Source of the DNA: a virus
Taxonomy: Duplodnaviria > Heunggongvirae > Uroviricota > Caudoviricetes
Strand: one strand, 5' to 3'
Virus record (IMG/VR): IMGVR_UViG_3300045988_153444
Length of the DNA stretch: 32,473 nucleotides
Position numbers and translations under genes: made by a program. This document shows positions 1,328-8,265 of the stretch, piece after piece; position 1 is the first letter of the stretch, and each line of letters opens with the position of its first letter. The notes beneath the pieces are model-generated. The model saw nothing but the letters and a program-made list of their open reading frames with translations, was not told where the DNA came from and made no database searches.

Positions 1328-1738
1328 ATGGAAAAGAAAGAAGATAAACCGATTGCCATTGGTGCAGAGTCTGTTCCGTTTAAGTTTGAATTATCCCAAC
1401 TGGTAACAATGCGTATCAGTGAAGAGTGGGGAGAAGTTCAAGCCCGTGCTCAGTATGCAAATGGCGAAAACCAGTATCTGATTCACTATCAGGCGGCTGA
1501 TGGCCGTGCTACCACAGAGTGGTTCGGTGAGTCGATGCTGATTGCGATGGAGGATAAACGTCATCCTGGCTGCCCTGTTTTTGCCTGTATTGATTTGCCA
1601 GAAGGCGCGGTACTTGAAGACGACAAAGAAGAATGGTCGCCTGATGGCGAACTTGTCATTACCGGAATCGTGGATGGTAAGCCGGAATATTCCCGTATTG
1701 AGGTAAATAACGGCCACATCTGTTTGATCCCTGCGTAA
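1328..1738 (+). CDS. Hypothetical acidic protein (136 aa from ATG 1328; ORF track extends to 1259)
   Basis: AGGTGA 7 nt upstream of ATG 1328; no family recognised. Confidence 0.55.
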   Translation: MEKKEDKPIAIGAESVPFKFELSQLVTMRISEEWGEVQARAQYANGENQYLIHYQAADGRATTEWFGESMLIAMEDKRHPGCPVFACIDLPEGAVLEDDKEEWSPDGELVITGIVDGKPEYSRIEVNNGHICLIPA

Positions 1739-1972
1739 CGCATTACAGCAGCTCTTGTGCTAATCAGGGGCTGCGATAATGCGCAAACCAAAGCTGCCTC
1801 ATTAACTCCTGCTCGCTGTGGAGTTAATGCTGGTGGCTTTTTTATTACTGGAAGGTGGGCGACCGCCGTCAGTTGCGACCTGACGACAGTCATTCATACC
1901 CACAGGGTGCCGTGGATACAAACCGAGGCCCACTTGCTTGCACAAGCGAGGGGATTTTAGCGGATAAACGGC

Positions 1973-2596
1973 ATGACAAAACATCTTAATGTGGTTTCTT
2001 TACCACTTTCTGTGTTGATTGGTTATGAAAAGAACGCTCGCACACACTCCGTGGAGCAGGTAGATCAGATTGTTGCCAGCATACAGGAGTACGGATGGAC
2101 TAATCCGATCCTGATAGACGAGAACAACGTTGTAATTGCTGGTCATGGTCGAATTGCTGCGGCCACTCAGTTGGGGATGGATGATGTTCCCTGCATTGTT
2201 CTGGCTGGGCTAACGGAGAATCAGAAGAAGGCATATCGTCTGGCCGACAACCGTATTCCGCTGAATGCTGGTTGGGATGAAGAGTTGTTAAGCGCGGAGC
2301 TTGCAGATCTTGCGGCCGATGATTTTGCTCTGGACTCAATTGGTTTTACTCAGCGCGAACTGGATAACTTATTGAGTGCGGCGGTCTACGATGACACAGA
2401 GGGTATGGATATCCCATTTGAGAAGGATGAGGCCAAATCAGGCGTAAAAGTTCAGTACCTGTCATTTGGAGGTCATAAAATCCCGGCAACGGATGAGGAA
2501 GCGGATCGTTTTGACTGCGCGGTGTCTCGTTATGTTGATGATAATGGCAGCTATATCGGATTTGTATCCGCATTGCTGGCTGGGGAGGTGTGCTGA
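1973..2596 (+). CDS. ParB-like nuclease (ParB N-terminal) domain protein
   Basis: ParB/Srx-type N-terminal pattern (…NPILIDENNVVIAGHGRIAAATQLGMDDVPCIVL…KKAYRLADN…). Paralog of the 5262-5852 product. Confidence 0.8.
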   Translation: MTKHLNVVSLPLSVLIGYEKNARTHSVEQVDQIVASIQEYGWTNPILIDENNVVIAGHGRIAAATQLGMDDVPCIVLAGLTENQKKAYRLADNRIPLNAGWDEELLSAELADLAADDFALDSIGFTQRELDNLLSAAVYDDTEGMDIPFEKDEAKSGVKVQYLSFGGHKIPATDEEADRFDCAVSRYVDDNGSYIGFVSALLAGEVC

Positions 2597-3969
2597 TGCT
2601 TCACCTGAATTACGACATAACGCACCTACGCGGCGCGGAATATAACCCGCGTTTTATCGGTGAGGATGATCTTGCGAGGCTGGCGGAAAGCGTCAGGGAG
2701 CTGGGGCTTGTGAAGCCATTGATAGTGCGCGGCGATTTGCTGGTGGCGGGACACCAAAGGACGAAGGCGCTACGTAAGTTGGGAATAACGCGTGCTGCGG
2801 TGTATGTGTTGCCCTGTGAAACGACGGTATACGACGAAGTACGGTTTAACCAACTGCATAACGGAACGGATTTTGATAGCGGAGATGAGCGTTGCAGGGT
2901 GTCCGGTCTGGAAGATAAGCATGGTTTTGTTCAGGTATCGGCAAGCCAGATCTCAGGCAATATGCGCGCGAAAATGGCATATGTTCGAAAGAACATAGCG
3001 GAACTGGTTATCAAGTATGGTCCGTGGGGTGGTTGTGTTGCTACTCAGTCTGGTGAGGTTATTCACTGTGCTCAGTATGCATTAGCAGCGAAAATGACGC
3101 GCACACCGCTAACGGTGTTTGTGATCCCTGATGTTGAGAAGGAAAAATACCAAAGTTATCTGAATAAAACTTATGGTGTATTTGAGTATTCTCATCTGGA
3201 GAAAACAACATACATCCAGACGTATGCGCAGCTTATGCGGTTGCGTAATGGTGGCAGCCTGAAATCAAACCTGTATGAGTCGTTGATCCTCCCGATCATT
3301 GCCAAGACGCCAAGAGGAATTGATTTTGGTTCGGGGCAGGGAGACTACGCGCGAATGCTCAGGGCAAAGGGATATAACCTGCATGATCTCGAGCTTTTCC
3401 GCCGTAAGGGCGCTGGAAACACTCTGGATAGGACCGCAACAAACCGGATGATTGATACGCTGGTGGACGACTTAAAAACGCGAGGGCGTTACGACTACGT
3501 GATTTGCGATAGCGTTTTGAACTCGGTCGATAGTGTCGAGGCTGAATGGTCTGTTCTGACGGTTCTGAAAGGCCTGTGTAAAGCTGGTGGGTCAATATTC
3601 TTTTCTGGTCGTAGCCGTGGAGAGCTGGAAACAGTCCTGAAGCAAACACAAGCGGCGAGTTCCAAAAGCCGGCTTTATTTTATTGATCATAACGGTTTTA
3701 CCGCGTTGTACCGGAAGGGGCACTGGTTTTACCAGAAGTTTCACTCTGATGATGAAGTGAAGCAGTTGTGTCGTGTACATGGTTTCAGGATTAAGCGGTC
3801 AATATTCAACTGTAAGAGCTGGTATTTGCACGTCATTAACGATGATTCCCTTAGTTGGGCGAGTCTGGAGAAAGCTGTTCGTTTTGAGTTTGAGTTGCCG
3901 TTGCCTGGTGGTTCAACAATCGGACGATCTGATGATGTGCTGGCGGCTTTCCGGCCGCTGATTAAGTAG
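2596..3969 (+). CDS. ParB-like N-terminal domain fused to a class I SAM-dependent methyltransferase fold
   Basis: N-terminus KPLIVRGDLLVAGHQRTKALRKLG (ParB-like). C-terminal half has motif I IDFGSGQGDY, an acidic post-I residue (HDLE), YDYVICDSVL and GGSIFFSG. No (D/N/S)PP(Y/F/W) amino-methyltransferase motif was found. ATG 2596 overlaps the upstream stop (TGATG) with GGGGAGG SD. Confidence 0.75.
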   Translation: MLHLNYDITHLRGAEYNPRFIGEDDLARLAESVRELGLVKPLIVRGDLLVAGHQRTKALRKLGITRAAVYVLPCETTVYDEVRFNQLHNGTDFDSGDERCRVSGLEDKHGFVQVSASQISGNMRAKMAYVRKNIAELVIKYGPWGGCVATQSGEVIHCAQYALAAKMTRTPLTVFVIPDVEKEKYQSYLNKTYGVFEYSHLEKTTYIQTYAQLMRLRNGGSLKSNLYESLILPIIAKTPRGIDFGSGQGDYARMLRAKGYNLHDLELFRRKGAGNTLDRTATNRMIDTLVDDLKTRGRYDYVICDSVLNSVDSVEAEWSVLTVLKGLCKAGGSIFFSGRSRGELETVLKQTQAASSKSRLYFIDHNGFTALYRKGHWFYQKFHSDDEVKQLCRVHGFRIKRSIFNCKSWYLHVINDDSLSWASLEKAVRFEFELPLPGGSTIGRSDDVLAAFRPLIK

Positions 3970-3985
3970 TGTGTAGGAGGCGCTG

Positions 3986-4705
3986 GTGGCTGACAGAATT
4001 GAGATAAAGATGGATTTTTCTTCTCAGGATATTCAACGGCAACTCCAGCGCATTGAAGAACGCGAATTGCCGTTCGCAATGGCGCTTACAGCAACCAGAA
4101 CGGCAAAGGCTTCTCAGGCTGCGATTAAGGATGAAATTAATCGGGTATTTGACAGGCCCACGCCGTGGATTCAGAACTCTACTTACGTTTTAGCCGCAAA
4201 GAAGAGTGATCCTACAGCCATTGTGTATGCTCGTGAATGGGGTGGAACGCCAGCCCCTGTAACGTTGACTCCGCAAATCGAAGGCGGCCAACGACAGTAC
4301 AAACGCTCAGAAGGGGCGCTAAGGGCTGGTGGATATTTGCCTAACGGCTGGCAGCTTGCTCCTGGTCCCGGCGCAAAGCTGGACAAATACGGGAATATTT
4401 CGCGGGGGCAATTACAGCAGGTCTTATCTGGCCTAAGAGTTCAGCGAGATGCGCATCAAAATCGCCGTCAGGGCAAGCCTACGGAGTTTTTTGTTGTTCG
4501 ACCTGGTACAAGTAACCCGCTTCAACCAGGCGTCTGGCAGCGCGTTGGGCGGCGTCCTACGTTGATCCTTACGTTCATCCAGCAACCTAACTATTCGCAG
4601 CGTCTTGATTGGCATGGCGTGGCGCTGCGTGCTGGTGAGGATGCGTTTGCTGATGAAGTCACAAAGGCTATTGATGACATCCTTTCTAAGACGTTCTCTC
4701 GTTAA
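3986..4705 (+). CDS. Hypothetical protein (239 aa), last gene of the ParB/methyltransferase operon
   Basis: GTG start with AGGAGG 5 nt upstream; no family recognised. Confidence 0.6.
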   Translation: MADRIEIKMDFSSQDIQRQLQRIEERELPFAMALTATRTAKASQAAIKDEINRVFDRPTPWIQNSTYVLAAKKSDPTAIVYAREWGGTPAPVTLTPQIEGGQRQYKRSEGALRAGGYLPNGWQLAPGPGAKLDKYGNISRGQLQQVLSGLRVQRDAHQNRRQGKPTEFFVVRPGTSNPLQPGVWQRVGRRPTLILTFIQQPNYSQRLDWHGVALRAGEDAFADEVTKAIDDILSKTFSR

Positions 4706-4889
4706 TCATCGTGTGGTTGATGGTGTTGTTATGCAGGGTGTATTCACTGTGTTCTGTAGCGTCGCTCGCTGGCTGTCTGTGGGGGAGCACGAGCATCGTT
4801 TCATCGTCCGGCAGAATTGGGTCCTTCTGGCCAAAAGCGTTGGATGCGGGTCATTCGAACCCCGATATTCGGCTAGCTAAACGTGAAAA

Positions 4890-5260
4890 AAGTTAGGTTA
4901 AAAGTTGCGGTAAAAGAAATTTACTCATCTCATTGAAAAATATCGGGAAAACGTGATTTTTTCTGTATTTGTGCTGGTAAGAAGAAAGTGGAAAATTTTC
5001 TTTTAGATCATCAAGATACGCGCAGATCTTTAACCAATGTGATGTTGTTCTGATAAAAATCGTTATAAATCATGCAAATACATCCAATCTTTTAACCAAA
5101 ACACCATCGCAAGATCCTTTTTACTTATAAAAACTTAATAAAATCAGATAATTATGCTGGTTTGTGTGATTTTTTATGAGTAAAAAGATCGTCATTTTTC
5201 TCTTTTAGTATCAATAAGTTAAACAGTTTTCTTTAACCTGTTGTGTTATGGCGGTTAAAA
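4890..5260 (+). promoter_or_regulatory. AT-rich non-coding region upstream of the packaging operon; candidate late promoter and/or cos/pac region
   Basis: No convincing ORF. Four GATC sites counted by eye (5006, 5026, 5113, 5187). TCTTT(T)AACC motif three times (5027, 5089, 5230). Function is inferred. Confidence 0.3.
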
Positions 5261-5261
5261 A

Positions 5262-5852
5262 ATGGCTCTAAAAATCGAATATTTACCAGTCGGTAAGTTG
5301 CTCAGATATGCCAAAAATTCACGGACTCATTCAGATGAGCAAGTTGAACAGTTGGTGAACAGTATCCGTGAGTTCGGTTTCACTAATCCTGTGCTGATCG
5401 ATGAAAAGAATGAACTGATTGCGGGGCATGGGCGGCTTGCAGCAGCCGAAATTCTGGAAATGGATAAAGTTCCGGCGATTCGGTTGAGTAACCTTTCTGA
5501 AAAACAGAAGAAGGCTTACAGGATTGCAGATAACAAGCTGGCCTTAAATGCTGGCTGGGATATGCAGCTTCTGGCCGAAGAAGTCAAAGAGTTAATGGAT
5601 GATGATTTTGATATTGATCTGCTTGGGTTTAATGATGCAGAGCTTGACGAAATGTTAAGCGATGAACAGCCGCAGGAAGAAGACGATAATTCTTCCCCTG
5701 TTGTTCAAATTAAGTACCTGGCTATTGATAAAGAACGTATTCCCGCGACGGATATGGAAATTGCATTGTTGCTGGATGTTTATCGTCAGTACCACGACGC
5801 GCATGAAACGCATGAGGGATTTGTTCAGTATCTTGCTAATGGTTGCAAGTAA
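5262..5852 (+). CDS. ParB-like nuclease domain protein (paralog of 1973-2596)
   Basis: …NPVLIDEKNELIAGHGRLAAAEILEMDKVPAIRL…KKAYRIADN…; collinear similarity to the first ParB-like protein. Confidence 0.8.
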   Translation: MALKIEYLPVGKLLRYAKNSRTHSDEQVEQLVNSIREFGFTNPVLIDEKNELIAGHGRLAAAEILEMDKVPAIRLSNLSEKQKKAYRIADNKLALNAGWDMQLLAEEVKELMDDDFDIDLLGFNDAELDEMLSDEQPQEEDDNSSPVVQIKYLAIDKERIPATDMEIALLLDVYRQYHDAHETHEGFVQYLANGCK

Positions 5853-6403
5853 TGGCCATCGTCAGTAAGTCAGAGTTTGCCCGCCGGAAAGGTATTTCTC
5901 CGGCAATGGTTACGAAGCTCTGTCGTTCCGGTCGCATTCCAGTGCTGAAAAGCGGCAAGCTGGATTTTGATAAAGCCAGTGCGGCTTATGAAGCGAGCCG
6001 ACAGGTTGGTCGTGAGGTATCTGCTGAAAATGGAAAAAGAGGGCATGGGATATCTTCGGAACAACCAGAGTTACCCGCTGATGATGCCGGATTAGCTGGT
6101 GGTACTTCCGGTGTTGCGGTGCAATTCAACAAGGCTAAGACCGCAGAAAAAATTTATCAGGCAAAGCTGAAACGCCTTGAATTTGAAGAAAAGGAAGGCT
6201 CTCTCATCGCTAAAGATGCGGTCAGGGATGATGCATTTCTGGCAGCTAATGAATTGCGTAGCCGCTTATTTAGTATTGCTCCAAGAGCAGCTCCCCGTTG
6301 TGAAGGCAAAACAGCCAGGGAGATCGAGCGCATTATTGAAGACGAGATTAATTTTGCGCTTCAGGCGCTCCAGGAATCCCGATTTATTAAGCAGGAAGAA
6401 TAA
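5852..6403 (+). CDS. Terminase small subunit (HTH-containing)
   Basis: Sits immediately upstream of the large terminase; N-terminal HTH-like segment (SKSEFARRKGISPAMVTKLCRSG). ATG 5852 overlaps the upstream stop (TAATG); ORF track extends to 5843. Confidence 0.65.
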   Translation: MAIVSKSEFARRKGISPAMVTKLCRSGRIPVLKSGKLDFDKASAAYEASRQVGREVSAENGKRGHGISSEQPELPADDAGLAGGTSGVAVQFNKAKTAEKIYQAKLKRLEFEEKEGSLIAKDAVRDDAFLAANELRSRLFSIAPRAAPRCEGKTAREIERIIEDEINFALQALQESRFIKQEE

Positions 6404-6408
6404 ACCTC

Positions 6409-8265
6409 ATGGGCGAAACAGTATGGAGCACCGCTTTTTTCCGTGCGCTTCGCCCTAAATCACGGCTAACTGTTTCCGAATGGGCTGATAAGTATCGTCA
6501 TGTAGCGCCGGGAACGTCTCCAGAGCCAGGGCCGTGGCGTACAAGCCGAGTGCCATATTTGCGTGAACCAATGGATGTTATTGGTGACGCTGATACAGAA
6601 ACAGTAGTGATGCAATGTAGCTCGCAAATTGGTAAATCCGAATTACAGCTAAATGTTATGGGTTACTTTGCAGATCAGGAGCCATCTCCTCAGTTGATGA
6701 TTTATCCAACGGTAGAGGCGGCTGAGGCTTTTTCAAAAGAGCGTATTGATCCGACGTTCAAATATTCCCCTGGTTTGAAACACAAGCTGCATGAAGGGAA
6801 AGAGGGGCGCGGTGCAGCCAAAAAGTCCAGCACGACTATACGTATGAAGCATTACGCTGGTGGATATATAGCACTTGTTGGTGCTAATTCCCCAGCAGGT
6901 CTTGCATCCAGGCCAATTCGAATACTGTTAGCTGATGAGATTGATCGTTACGGTGTGACGCAGGAGGGCGACCCACTAAAACTAGGTATTCAGCGTACTA
7001 CCAACTTTCATAATCGTAAGAAAGTTTTTGTTTCTACTCCTGTTTTGGAGGAAACAAGCAAAATCCACAAGTGGTTTAAGCTCTCCGATCAGCGTTACTA
7101 CCATGTTCCTTGCCCATGTTGTGGCACCATGCAGGTGATGAAATGGTCGCAAGTCAGATGGGATAAGAGCGATTCAGGTGAGGCGTTACCGGAAACGGCC
7201 AGATATGAGTGCTGTGAGTGCGGCGGGATTATGCGCGGATCTGGTAAACCAGACGTTGATTGGTTGGCGAAGGGGGTATGGATAGCTGAACATACTGGAG
7301 TTAAAGGTATTGTTGGTTTTCATATTAACAGTCTTTACTCCCCGTGGGTTGCATTGTCAGAGCTGGTTGAAGAATTTACGGAAGCAACCAGAAACCGCGA
7401 TAAAAATGGATTAATGGAGTTTATTAACCTTAAGCTGGGTGAGCCATGGAAAGAGGATGCTAAAGACGATATCGATCCTGAATACTTGTTGCAACGCAGA
7501 ATAAGGTTTGAAGAGTTTTTACCAGATGATGTTTTATTGTTAAGTGCTGGTGTTGACGTACAGGACACGTATTTAGTTTGTGAATTGGTCGGTTGGGGAA
7601 AAGGTAAGGAGTCATGGGGGATAGAATATAAAATATTCCCAGGTGATCCCGCACAAGATGTTGTCTGGAAACAACTTGATGAATACTTACTCCGTAGCTG
7701 GTCATTCCGTGACGGTCGAAAATTACAGATTTCTTCCGTTTGTATTGACTCTGGTGGGCATTTTACGACAGAGGTATATCGCTTTACTAAGCCGAGAGAA
7801 TCAAGGCGAATATACTCTATCAGGGGGCGTGGTGGGGTAGGTTTACCATTTATAGGAAAGCCAAGTAATAATAACCGTGTGGGTGCTATGTTGTTTAATT
7901 TGGGGGTTGATGATGGTAAAGGGACCATCATGGCAAGAATTAAACTACATGATCCTGGTCCTGGTTATATGCATTTCCCATTAGATTCTGACAGAGGATA
8001 TGATACCGAATACTTTAAAGGATTATTATCAGAGAAAAAAATATTTGAATATAAAAATGGGCAGACAAAAGAAAAGTGGGTGAAAGTCTACGAGCGTAAC
8101 GAGCCTCTTGATTGCCGTAACTATGCAACTGCCGCGATGGAAATTCTGAACCCTAATTTTAACTGGCTTGCCGAACAGGAAATGCGAGGTAATGTGTATG
8201 TGCAGAACTCGTCAGGTATACGTAGAAGACGCCGTAGAGTTATAAGTAAAGGCGTAACCATATAG
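6409..8265 (+). CDS. Terminase large subunit, lambda GpA family
   Basis: 618-aa protein, P-loop-like SSQIGKS, size and order (terS-terL-W-portal) typical of lambda-like packaging modules. Confidence 0.9.
   Translation: MGETVWSTAFFRALRPKSRLTVSEWADKYRHVAPGTSPEPGPWRTSRVPYLREPMDVIGDADTETVVMQCSSQIGKSELQLNVMGYFADQEPSPQLMIYPTVEAAEAFSKERIDPTFKYSPGLKHKLHEGKEGRGAAKKSSTTIRMKHYAGGYIALVGANSPAGLASRPIRILLADEIDRYGVTQEGDPLKLGIQRTTNFHNRKKVFVSTPVLEETSKIHKWFKLSDQRYYHVPCPCCGTMQVMKWSQVRWDKSDSGEALPETARYECCECGGIMRGSGKPDVDWLAKGVWIAEHTGVKGIVGFHINSLYSPWVALSELVEEFTEATRNRDKNGLMEFINLKLGEPWKEDAKDDIDPEYLLQRRIRFEEFLPDDVLLLSAGVDVQDTYLVCELVGWGKGKESWGIEYKIFPGDPAQDVVWKQLDEYLLRSWSFRDGRKLQISSVCIDSGGHFTTEVYRFTKPRESRRIYSIRGRGGVGLPFIGKPSNNNRVGAMLFNLGVDDGKGTIMARIKLHDPGPGYMHFPLDSDRGYDTEYFKGLLSEKKIFEYKNGQTKEKWVKVYERNEPLDCRNYATAAMEILNPNFNWLAEQEMRGNVYVQNSSGIRRRRRRVISKGVTI

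Follow-up and report, generated by a model that had tools for sequence, protein, structure and literature searches.

This report concerns a 32,473-nucleotide (nt) stretch of DNA from a virus of the Caudoviricetes (IMG/VR virus record IMGVR_UViG_3300045988_153444), hereafter the window, and two overlapping genes within it. The first of these genes encodes a small, stand-alone ParB-like protein (ParB1), and the second encodes a protein in which a ParB domain is fused to a methyltransferase (ParB-MT). The gene order, all on the + strand, is ParB1, ParB-MT, a 239-amino-acid (aa) protein (p239), the cohesive-end site (cos), a second small ParB protein (ParB3), the small terminase subunit (TerS) and the GpA-type large terminase subunit (TerL). 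ParB1 and ParB-MT constitute a tightly coupled two-gene module, and the pair is conserved as a unit over many phyla, directly upstream of unrelated terminases. The four open reading frames (ORFs) listed here by a first-pass annotation, made from the DNA letters alone, are found on the + strand where they had been placed, and the RefSeq annotation of an identical plasmid (see below) agrees. The ParB-fold proteins and the domains of ParB-MT, the latter given in a 459-aa numbering that starts at 2590, are located as follows:

1973..2596, + strand: ParB1, stand-alone small ParB/Srx-fold protein, 207 aa (PHROG 620, E=4e-74)
2596..3969, + strand: ParB-MT, ParB–methyltransferase fusion, 457 aa from the ATG at 2596 (ParB_N and Methyltransf_23)
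about 2590-2874, + strand: ParB_N domain of ParB-MT
about 2899-3189 (residues 104-200), + strand: middle domain of ParB-MT
about 3262-3849, + strand: class I S-adenosylmethionine (SAM) methyltransferase domain of ParB-MT
about 3856-3963, + strand: C-terminal helices of ParB-MT
5262..5852, + strand: ParB3, second small ParB of the ParB1 family (PHROG 620, E=5e-75)

The ParB–methyltransferase fusion and its small ParB partner

A class I methyltransferase signature had been recognized in the middle one of the three ParB proteins, and this assignment was confirmed: ParB-MT matches Pfam Methyltransf_23 with 32.6 bits, i.e., over the 27-bit threshold, and its motif I reads DFGSGQG. The N-terminal domain scores 24.3 bits against Pfam ParB_N (cut-off 26.3) and matches Spo0J in the PDB (E=0.002), and PHROG 5475 (unknown function) covers the protein from end to end (E=1.6e-265). 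The AlphaFold model is confident (predicted local distance difference test, pLDDT, 92; predicted template modeling score, pTM, 0.88), and the methyltransferase domain is an intact class I SAM-binding domain with a Rossmann-like fold. A word-indexed search returned 716 homologs, almost all of which are 455-480 aa long with the same two Pfam domains. In an alignment of 32 diverse members (ParB-MT and 31 homologs), AGHQR, FNQLHNGTD, DFGxG of SAM motif I, the acidic residue E268 and several arginines and aromatics are invariant, and strand 4 is followed by a stretch, D307-x-V-x-N311-S312-x-D314, which is of the Methyltransf_11/23 type and not DPPY/NPPY. The reported lack of a DPPY/NPPY-type or PCQ motif in this protein extends to the aligned homologs, where neither [DNS]PP[YFWH] (0/32) nor PC[QK] was found and the ENV motif is likewise absent; ParB-MT gave no Pfam match to N6_N4_Mtase, N6_Mtase or MT-A70.

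Structure comparison identified small-molecule, tRNA and protein methyltransferases as the closest folds, at 10-17% identity. The top matches are toxoflavin N-methyltransferase, Trm9, METTL6, UbiG and many uncharacterized small-molecule-type methyltransferases; no specific characterized enzyme was matched above 17% identity. A match to a well-characterized small-molecule methyltransferase had been named in the first-pass annotation as evidence against a role in DNA modification; the fold leans in that direction, but at this level of identity it points to no specific enzyme.

A HMMER search with the methyltransferase domain alone yielded 394 matches among 1.84 billion cluster representatives, and essentially all full-length matches share the ~460-aa ParB-fusion layout. 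As judged from these sequences, the methyltransferase clade is self-contained and exists essentially only as a ParB fusion. Other fusion partners for the domain were considered and discarded, the exhaustive search having returned essentially the one architecture. The middle domain of ParB-MT (~100 residues) is confidently modeled, with invariant N124, R133, G144-W146-G147, H159 and Q162-Y163, and its order of elements (helix-strand-strand-helix-strand) is like that of the N-terminal ParB_N domain. Profile searches of the PDB and Pfam returned nothing for this domain, and hhalign gave a probability of 0.4% for a degenerate second ParB_N.

The presence of an N-terminal ParB domain in all three proteins, as had been proposed, is borne out by matches to ParB_N, PHROG 620 and Spo0J in the PDB, together with the Box I and Box II motifs. 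The PHROG family matched by ParB1 and ParB3 is named 'ParB-like partition protein'. Against Pfam ParB_N (PF02195), ParB3 scores 33.7 bits, over the 26.3-bit cut-off, and ParB1 scores 23.9 bits, under it; PF02195 is precomputed on most homologs of the ParB proteins. The Box II motif GxxRxxA (GHGRIAA, GHQRTKA and GHGRLAA) and a Box I-like N.R motif (NAR, NPR and NSR) are found in all three proteins and are invariant across the respective families. ParB1 and ParB3 are 48% identical over 201 aa (E=5e-62). They had been described as close paralogs; the paralogy stands, but the alignment indicates that these members of one family are only moderately close.

ParB1 starts with a ParB_N domain, continues with a helical linker whose homologs are found at the N-termini of ParB–N6/N4 DNA methyltransferases, and ends in a C-terminal domain that is short and conserved. 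Conserved positions of the family are N21, G57/R60, D92/N93, E176, G196 and F197, and the C-terminal E...G...GF signature and the pocket residues are retained in the partner ParB family. The small ParB proteins share 40-60% identity with the N-terminal parts of phage proteins that carry the annotation DNA methyltransferase; for the first ~140 residues of ParB3 the identity is up to 57-60%. A PADLOC match to MTase_II, a type II methyltransferase model, is confined to profile positions 14-158. Membership of a defense system was rejected, as this match covers just the ParB part of the model.

Conservation of the pair and its genomic context

The context of the module was followed in a sample of 80 viral and 78 genomic loci. 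A small ParB protein of the ParB1/ParB3 family is encoded directly upstream of ParB-MT in 68 of the 69 viral loci with enough upstream sequence, and the same pairing is found in nearly all 78 genome loci. The two genes of the window share a true 1-nt overlap (TGATG); in viral loci the overlap is mostly 4-8 nt. In other phages (loci L035 and L055), a ParB3-like protein is the direct partner of ParB-MT. The pairing occurs in Gamma- and Alphaproteobacteria, Bacillota, Bacteroidota, Planctomycetota, Chloroflexota, Myxococcota and Actinomycetota, and the module is found in integrated prophages and lytic phages as well.

Downstream sequence was long enough in 53 non-redundant loci, and at least 29 of them have TerL as the first large ORF beyond ParB-MT, a lower bound that is derived from per-family Pfam counts. 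The TerL proteins at this position come from at least four unrelated families, among them GpA, Terminase_6, Terminase_3 and TerL_ATPase. Terminases of both the cos type and the headful type accompany the module. In Bacteroides phage BS-TP3, the genes abut in the order ParB, methyltransferase, TerS, TerL, and at a Streptomyces venezuelae locus of 30% identity the terminase is found 1.8 kb downstream.

A gene for a Cys/His-rich protein of ~145 aa lies directly downstream of ParB-MT in 31 of 67 non-redundant loci from many phyla. Examples of this family are found at L020, L032 (L032:2037-2468), L097, L136 and ~60 other loci, and its invariant positions are W, HC, Y.C.V, N.H and CRN..F. Searches of Pfam, PHROG and the PDB gave no match to it, and neither the window nor the whole plasmid described below encodes a homolog; the protein may be a third component of the module.

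Variations of the arrangement were also observed. Tandem arrays of two to three ParB–methyltransferase paralogs are found in Chloroflexota (L108, L111, L114 and L115) and in Bacteroidaceae/Prevotella (L129, L131, L136 and L137), and all of these loci hold two to three small ParB genes; these arrays suggest diversification of the module. In a Bradyrhizobium prophage (L003/L004, 9900-17200), genes for Amidoligase_2, GGACT/AIG2 and a small MTS/N6_Mtase-like protein reside between the ParB–methyltransferase and Terminase_3, possibly as a larger modification cluster within a ParB–Tls locus (a locus type discussed below). Streptomyces loci (L141 1906-3144, Streptomyces venezuelae) encode an additional 380-420-aa protein with ParB_N and HTH_ParB domains ~2-3 kb upstream of the pair, and therefore have three ParB-fold proteins before the Terminase_6 gene.

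The putative cos site, packaging genes and phage-plasmid

The remaining features of the region are:

3986..4705, + strand: p239, HK97-gp10/λ-gpZ-like tail-completion (neck) protein, 239 aa (PHROG 1924 and fold)
4849..4860, no strand: putative 12-nt cohesive end (cosN), GGTCATTCGAAC (opening points of two Yersinia phage records)
4861..5261, no strand: AT-rich non-coding region from cos to ParB3, with a guanine-plus-cytosine (GC) fraction of 0.30 (composition)
5852..6403, + strand: TerS, terminase small subunit (PHROG 57, E=7e-42)
6409..8265, + strand: TerL, terminase large subunit of the GpA (λ) type (GpA_ATPase, E=7e-76; GpA_nuclease, E=1e-84)
1259-1738: 159-aa ORF just upstream of ParB1 (PHROG 1935, unknown function, E=2e-65)

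The product of the 239-aa ORF had been listed as an unknown protein that is translationally coupled to ParB-MT, and both parts of this description require revision. The p239 gene starts 16 nt after ParB-MT and has its own AGGAGG site, i.e., the genes are closely linked rather than coupled by overlap. The protein matches PHROG 1924 ('minor tail protein') and in structure comparison shares its fold with a solved neck protein. There was no Pfam match for p239 itself, and weak matches to PF06763 (Minor_tail_Z) were obtained in 7 of 32 homologs (best E=1.3e-4). In Pseudomonas phages F10 and MD8, Rhodobacter phages and others, the genome terminates on the right with the gene for a p239 homolog. On the basis of its modeled fold, p239 is predicted to be a virion neck (tail-completion) protein, encoded by the last gene before cos. 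λ gpZ and HK97 gp10 belong to the same tail-completion class. With about double the length of the λ gpZ, HK97 gp10 and SPP1 gp16.1 neck proteins, p239 has long helices at both termini, and it is encoded next to cos, far from the other tail genes. It accompanies ParB-MT solely in relatives with at least 69% identity and was, with its neck-protein fold, rejected as a component of the module. The 159-aa ORF upstream of ParB1 accompanies the module in close relatives only.

The cos site was placed from two near-identical Yersinia phage records, OR545053.1 and OR545055.1, which were opened exactly 12 nt apart, flanking GGTCATTCGAAC. This offset is the expected signature of a 12-nt cohesive end, and the putative site fits a λ-type GpA terminase. 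A drop in the GC fraction across the site, from 0.54 to 0.30, suggests a mosaic junction, and the AT-rich region that follows is a likely candidate for a terminase-binding or regulatory region. Only weak repeat families and no σ70-like promoter were found in the cos region, and a promoter/terminator scan of 1700-5300 revealed no σ70-like site and no convincing terminator. ParB3 is encoded by the first gene after cos; its stop codon and the TerS start share 1 nt (TAATG), and ParB3 is translationally coupled to the small terminase.

Because cos resides between p239 and ParB3, virion DNA does not carry the three ParB genes as a single contiguous operon: ParB1, ParB-MT and p239 are at the right end, and ParB3, TerS and TerL at the left end, and both groups are contiguous only in the circular or concatemeric form. 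The proposed position of the ParB genes upstream of the packaging genes thus holds, but not that of a single operon, since cos and a 400-nt AT-rich gap precede ParB3, TerS and TerL.

Positions 1900-5900 of the window are 100% identical to the circular 47.5-kb Escherichia (E.) coli plasmid NZ_CP064105.1, which carries RepA, ParA, a RelE/ParE toxin system, lysis genes and a full myovirus structural module. Among 5,426 complete E. coli genomes, 74 contain similar sequence, at 78 plasmid and 3 chromosomal positions, and phages isolated on Yersinia pestis and E. coli carry near-identical sequence. Because plasmid replication and partition genes are combined with the full myovirus module, and near-identical phages have been isolated, the window is identified as part of a ~47.5-kb E. 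coli myovirus phage-plasmid. The element is non-conjugative and its ParB genes are found within the late region, so that a link to plasmid leading regions, raised in the first-pass annotation, does not apply. An MT-A70 family DNA methyltransferase is encoded on the same plasmid (L001 5793-6380), ~600 nt ahead of the window start, and this gene and a tRNA-Ile gene are flanked by the lysis genes on one side and the ParB module on the other, so that a conventional DNA adenine methyltransferase is already encoded in the late region of the element.

Possible functions of the module

In the ParB–Tls locus (Iyer et al., NAR 2013; restated in PMC4738411 and PMC6536676), DNA-modifying genes are found between a ParB-like gene and a terminase, and such loci were predicted to modify phage DNA in connection with packaging (PMC4738411, PMC6536676). 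This gene order is found in the window, where TerL is the downstream boundary, and it recurs in distant loci. As in other ParB–Tls loci, a ParB-like gene and TerL on one strand bracket a methyltransferase gene, and the ParB domains are either free or fused to the methyltransferase. The cargo described or tested so far, however, comprises N6A/N4C or C5 DNA methyltransferases, whereas that of the window is of the Methyltransf_23 type and has no DNA-methyltransferase motifs. Furthermore, the enzyme of the window has its own ParB domain in addition to an obligatory separate small ParB, and the module is set apart from the terminase by three insertions, namely a neck-protein gene, cos and a second small ParB. 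The earlier proposal of a DNA-modification module is in line with the fit to the ParB–Tls class and with the atypical catalytic domain; its inclusion of the 239-aa protein is not upheld.

Related systems offer further points of comparison. In ParB–N6/N4 DNA methyltransferase fusions (PHROG 498; B. cereus Bce_0392; Paracoccus prophage enzymes), the N-terminal ~140 residues are homologous to ParB1/ParB3, with up to 57-60% identity, and the pre-terminase position is shared; among Paracoccus prophages, 36 ParB-fused m6A/m4C (N6-methyladenine/N4-methylcytosine) methyltransferases are all found upstream of the terminase. ParB1 and ParB3 differ in that they have no methyltransferase domain but a different conserved C-terminal domain of ~50 residues, and the methyltransferase neighboring ParB1 belongs to another clade. 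A survey of the ParB-CTPase fold (Hocher, Le and co-workers, PNAS 2025; PMC12704722) includes the ParB–Methyltransf_23 (PF13489) fusion itself and gives it as phage-enriched. According to the passages of that survey drawn on here, one bacterial and one gut-phage example were expressed, ATP binding was reported for ParB–SAM-methyltransferase fusions, and the fold can bind ATP or GTP and serves in enzymes that have no part in DNA segregation. The likeness of those fusions to ParB-MT extends, as far as the same passages go, to Pfam architecture, phage/prophage enrichment and the conserved Box II arginine; the survey assigned no substrate or function, and these passages describe neither an invariant neighboring small ParB nor a terminase context. 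In another system, a small phage ParB activates a neighboring DNA thymine dioxygenase, 5mYOX (PMC13229309, PNAS 2026). Here, too, a small phage ParB-fold protein without a helix-turn-helix (HTH) is found beside a DNA-base-modifying enzyme; the ParB is needed for activation and partner specificity is cognate, but the enzyme is an iron/2-oxoglutarate dioxygenase, not a methyltransferase, and has no ParB domain of its own. From this comparison, the kind of locus and the fusion are already catalogued and the enzyme family is biochemically uncharacterized; literature searches found no functional study of this particular ParB–Methyltransf_23 fusion.

In our preferred reading, to which we assign a probability of roughly 0.5, the region is the ParB–Tls locus of a temperate phage-plasmid and encodes a late two-ParB methylation module that acts on phage DNA around packaging. 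ParB1 and ParB-MT are co-translated late, from genes that are transcribed the same way as those for lysis, neck and packaging. The two ParB-fold proteins would associate via their N-domains in a nucleoside triphosphate (NTP)-dependent manner, probably with ATP, and engage phage DNA. The methyltransferase domain would then mark replicated phage DNA shortly before or during packaging, such that, in the next cell, progeny genomes would be shielded from host nucleases or ignored by them. Given that amino- and C5-methyltransferase motifs are missing from the catalytic domain, the mark is possibly not m6A, m4C or 5-methylcytosine (m5C). ParB3 would be a duplicated or recombined second partner ParB that ties the same function to the packaging operon. 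We infer the heteromeric NTP-dependent complex, the DNA substrate and the protective role alike. In favor of this reading are the tight pairing, the adjoining unrelated terminases, the published ParB–Tls concept, the likeness of the small ParB proteins to annotated DNA methyltransferases, the ATP binding reported for the fusion class, the ParB-activated dioxygenase and the near confinement of the methyltransferase clade to this fusion. ParB1 and ParB-MT also retain the motifs of the ParB-CTPase nucleotide pocket, and the SAM pocket of ParB-MT is intact. A more specific version, which we regard as doubtful, is that the small ParB and ParB-MT form an NTP-gated heteromeric DNA clamp that would place a packaging-coupled methyl mark of a chemistry new to phage genomes (e.g., on a ring nitrogen, an oxygen or the phosphate backbone), with the ~145-aa protein as a third component in many lineages.

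Several observations weigh against the proposed methylation of phage DNA. ParB-MT has neither a DNA-methyltransferase motif nor a DNA-methyltransferase Pfam family, its closest folds are those of small-molecule, tRNA and protein methyltransferases, and profile searches of ParB-MT revealed no recognizable DNA-binding (HTH) domain. The heterodimer and the NTP dependence of the ParB pair are what we infer, and the constructs of PMC12704722 may not be homologs of this family. About 40% of the loci have no detected terminase as the first large downstream ORF, some ParB-MT loci have no terminase nearby, and the pre-terminase position may be just a permissive slot for accessory genes. Finally, the MT-A70 DNA methyltransferase is already encoded on the plasmid, 2.5 kb upstream of the module.

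Some of these points are shared by the main rival explanation, which we consider unlikely overall, namely that the substrate of ParB-MT is not DNA but a nucleotide or small signaling molecule, tRNA or other RNA, or protein; instead of marking DNA, the enzyme could have a role in anti-defense or in takeover of the host. In that case, the ParB/Srx domains would be ATP-binding or substrate-activating modules, as in sulfiredoxin or SerK, consistent with the ATP/GTP binding and the enzymatic uses of the ParB-CTPase fold beyond DNA segregation. The toxoflavin N-methyltransferase, Trm9, METTL6 and UbiG folds, the Methyltransf_11/23-type motif after strand 4 and the lack of a DNA-binding domain in the ParB-MT profile searches fit this explanation. 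However, four unrelated terminase families adjoin the module and suggest that DNA is what these loci share, partner-type ParB domains are elsewhere fused to annotated DNA methyltransferases, the late-operon placement fits an early anti-defense role poorly, and the fold comparison offers no specific characterized enzyme above 17% identity. It is quite improbable, in our estimate, that the ParB proteins are instead packaging helpers, i.e., NTP-regulated nickases or DNA-loading factors that assist the terminase at cos or pac, comparable to the HNH endonucleases beside cos in HK97-like phages, with methylation regulating or timing cleavage. Dam methylation is known to regulate cleavage at the P1 pac site. 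Such a role would agree with the position of ParB3 after cos and its coupling to TerS, with the adjoining terminases across phyla, with the documented DNase activity of ParB/Srx domains and with the non-specific nicking activity of a B. cereus prophage ParB–methyltransferase that is encoded beside TerS (PMC3592412). However, the GpA terminase has its own nuclease domain, a specific end-cleavage role is unlikely for a module that is found with cos-type as well as headful-type terminases, the strict conservation of the SAM site speaks for methyl transfer as the core activity, and some loci have no terminase nearby.

The GenBank and RefSeq names of the small ParB proteins, which include 'chromosome (plasmid) partitioning protein' and 'ParB-like partition protein', and the fact that the element is a plasmid with a ParA gene, raise the question of whether ParB1 and ParB3 are partition (centromere-binding) proteins that stabilize the plasmid prophage. 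This role is effectively excluded: a Pfam scan gave no HTH_ParB match in the ParB proteins, TIGR00180 (canonical partition ParB) reached 16-40 bits only, far under the cut-off of 58.45, and the ParA-binding motif [LFI]G[KR]G[LFI] is absent from all three. In addition, the ParA gene is ~30 kb distant, lies on the other strand and is followed by a small gene of its own, and the module is present also in integrated prophages and lytic phages.

For the window itself, the analysis resolves one 'unknown' as a neck protein and places a cos site. The ParB–methyltransferase family is large (~400 clusters at 50% identity), with members in phages and prophages from eight phyla or more, and it extends from gut Bacteroides phages and Streptomyces prophages to a clinically common E. 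coli phage-plasmid. Should DNA be the substrate, a non-classical enzyme would probably make the mark, which could escape standard methylome motif callers; it could also affect restriction evasion, the host range in phage therapy and the spread of phage-plasmids. The strict pairing of two ParB proteins offers a tractable system for the reuse of the ParB nucleotide switch outside chromosome segregation.

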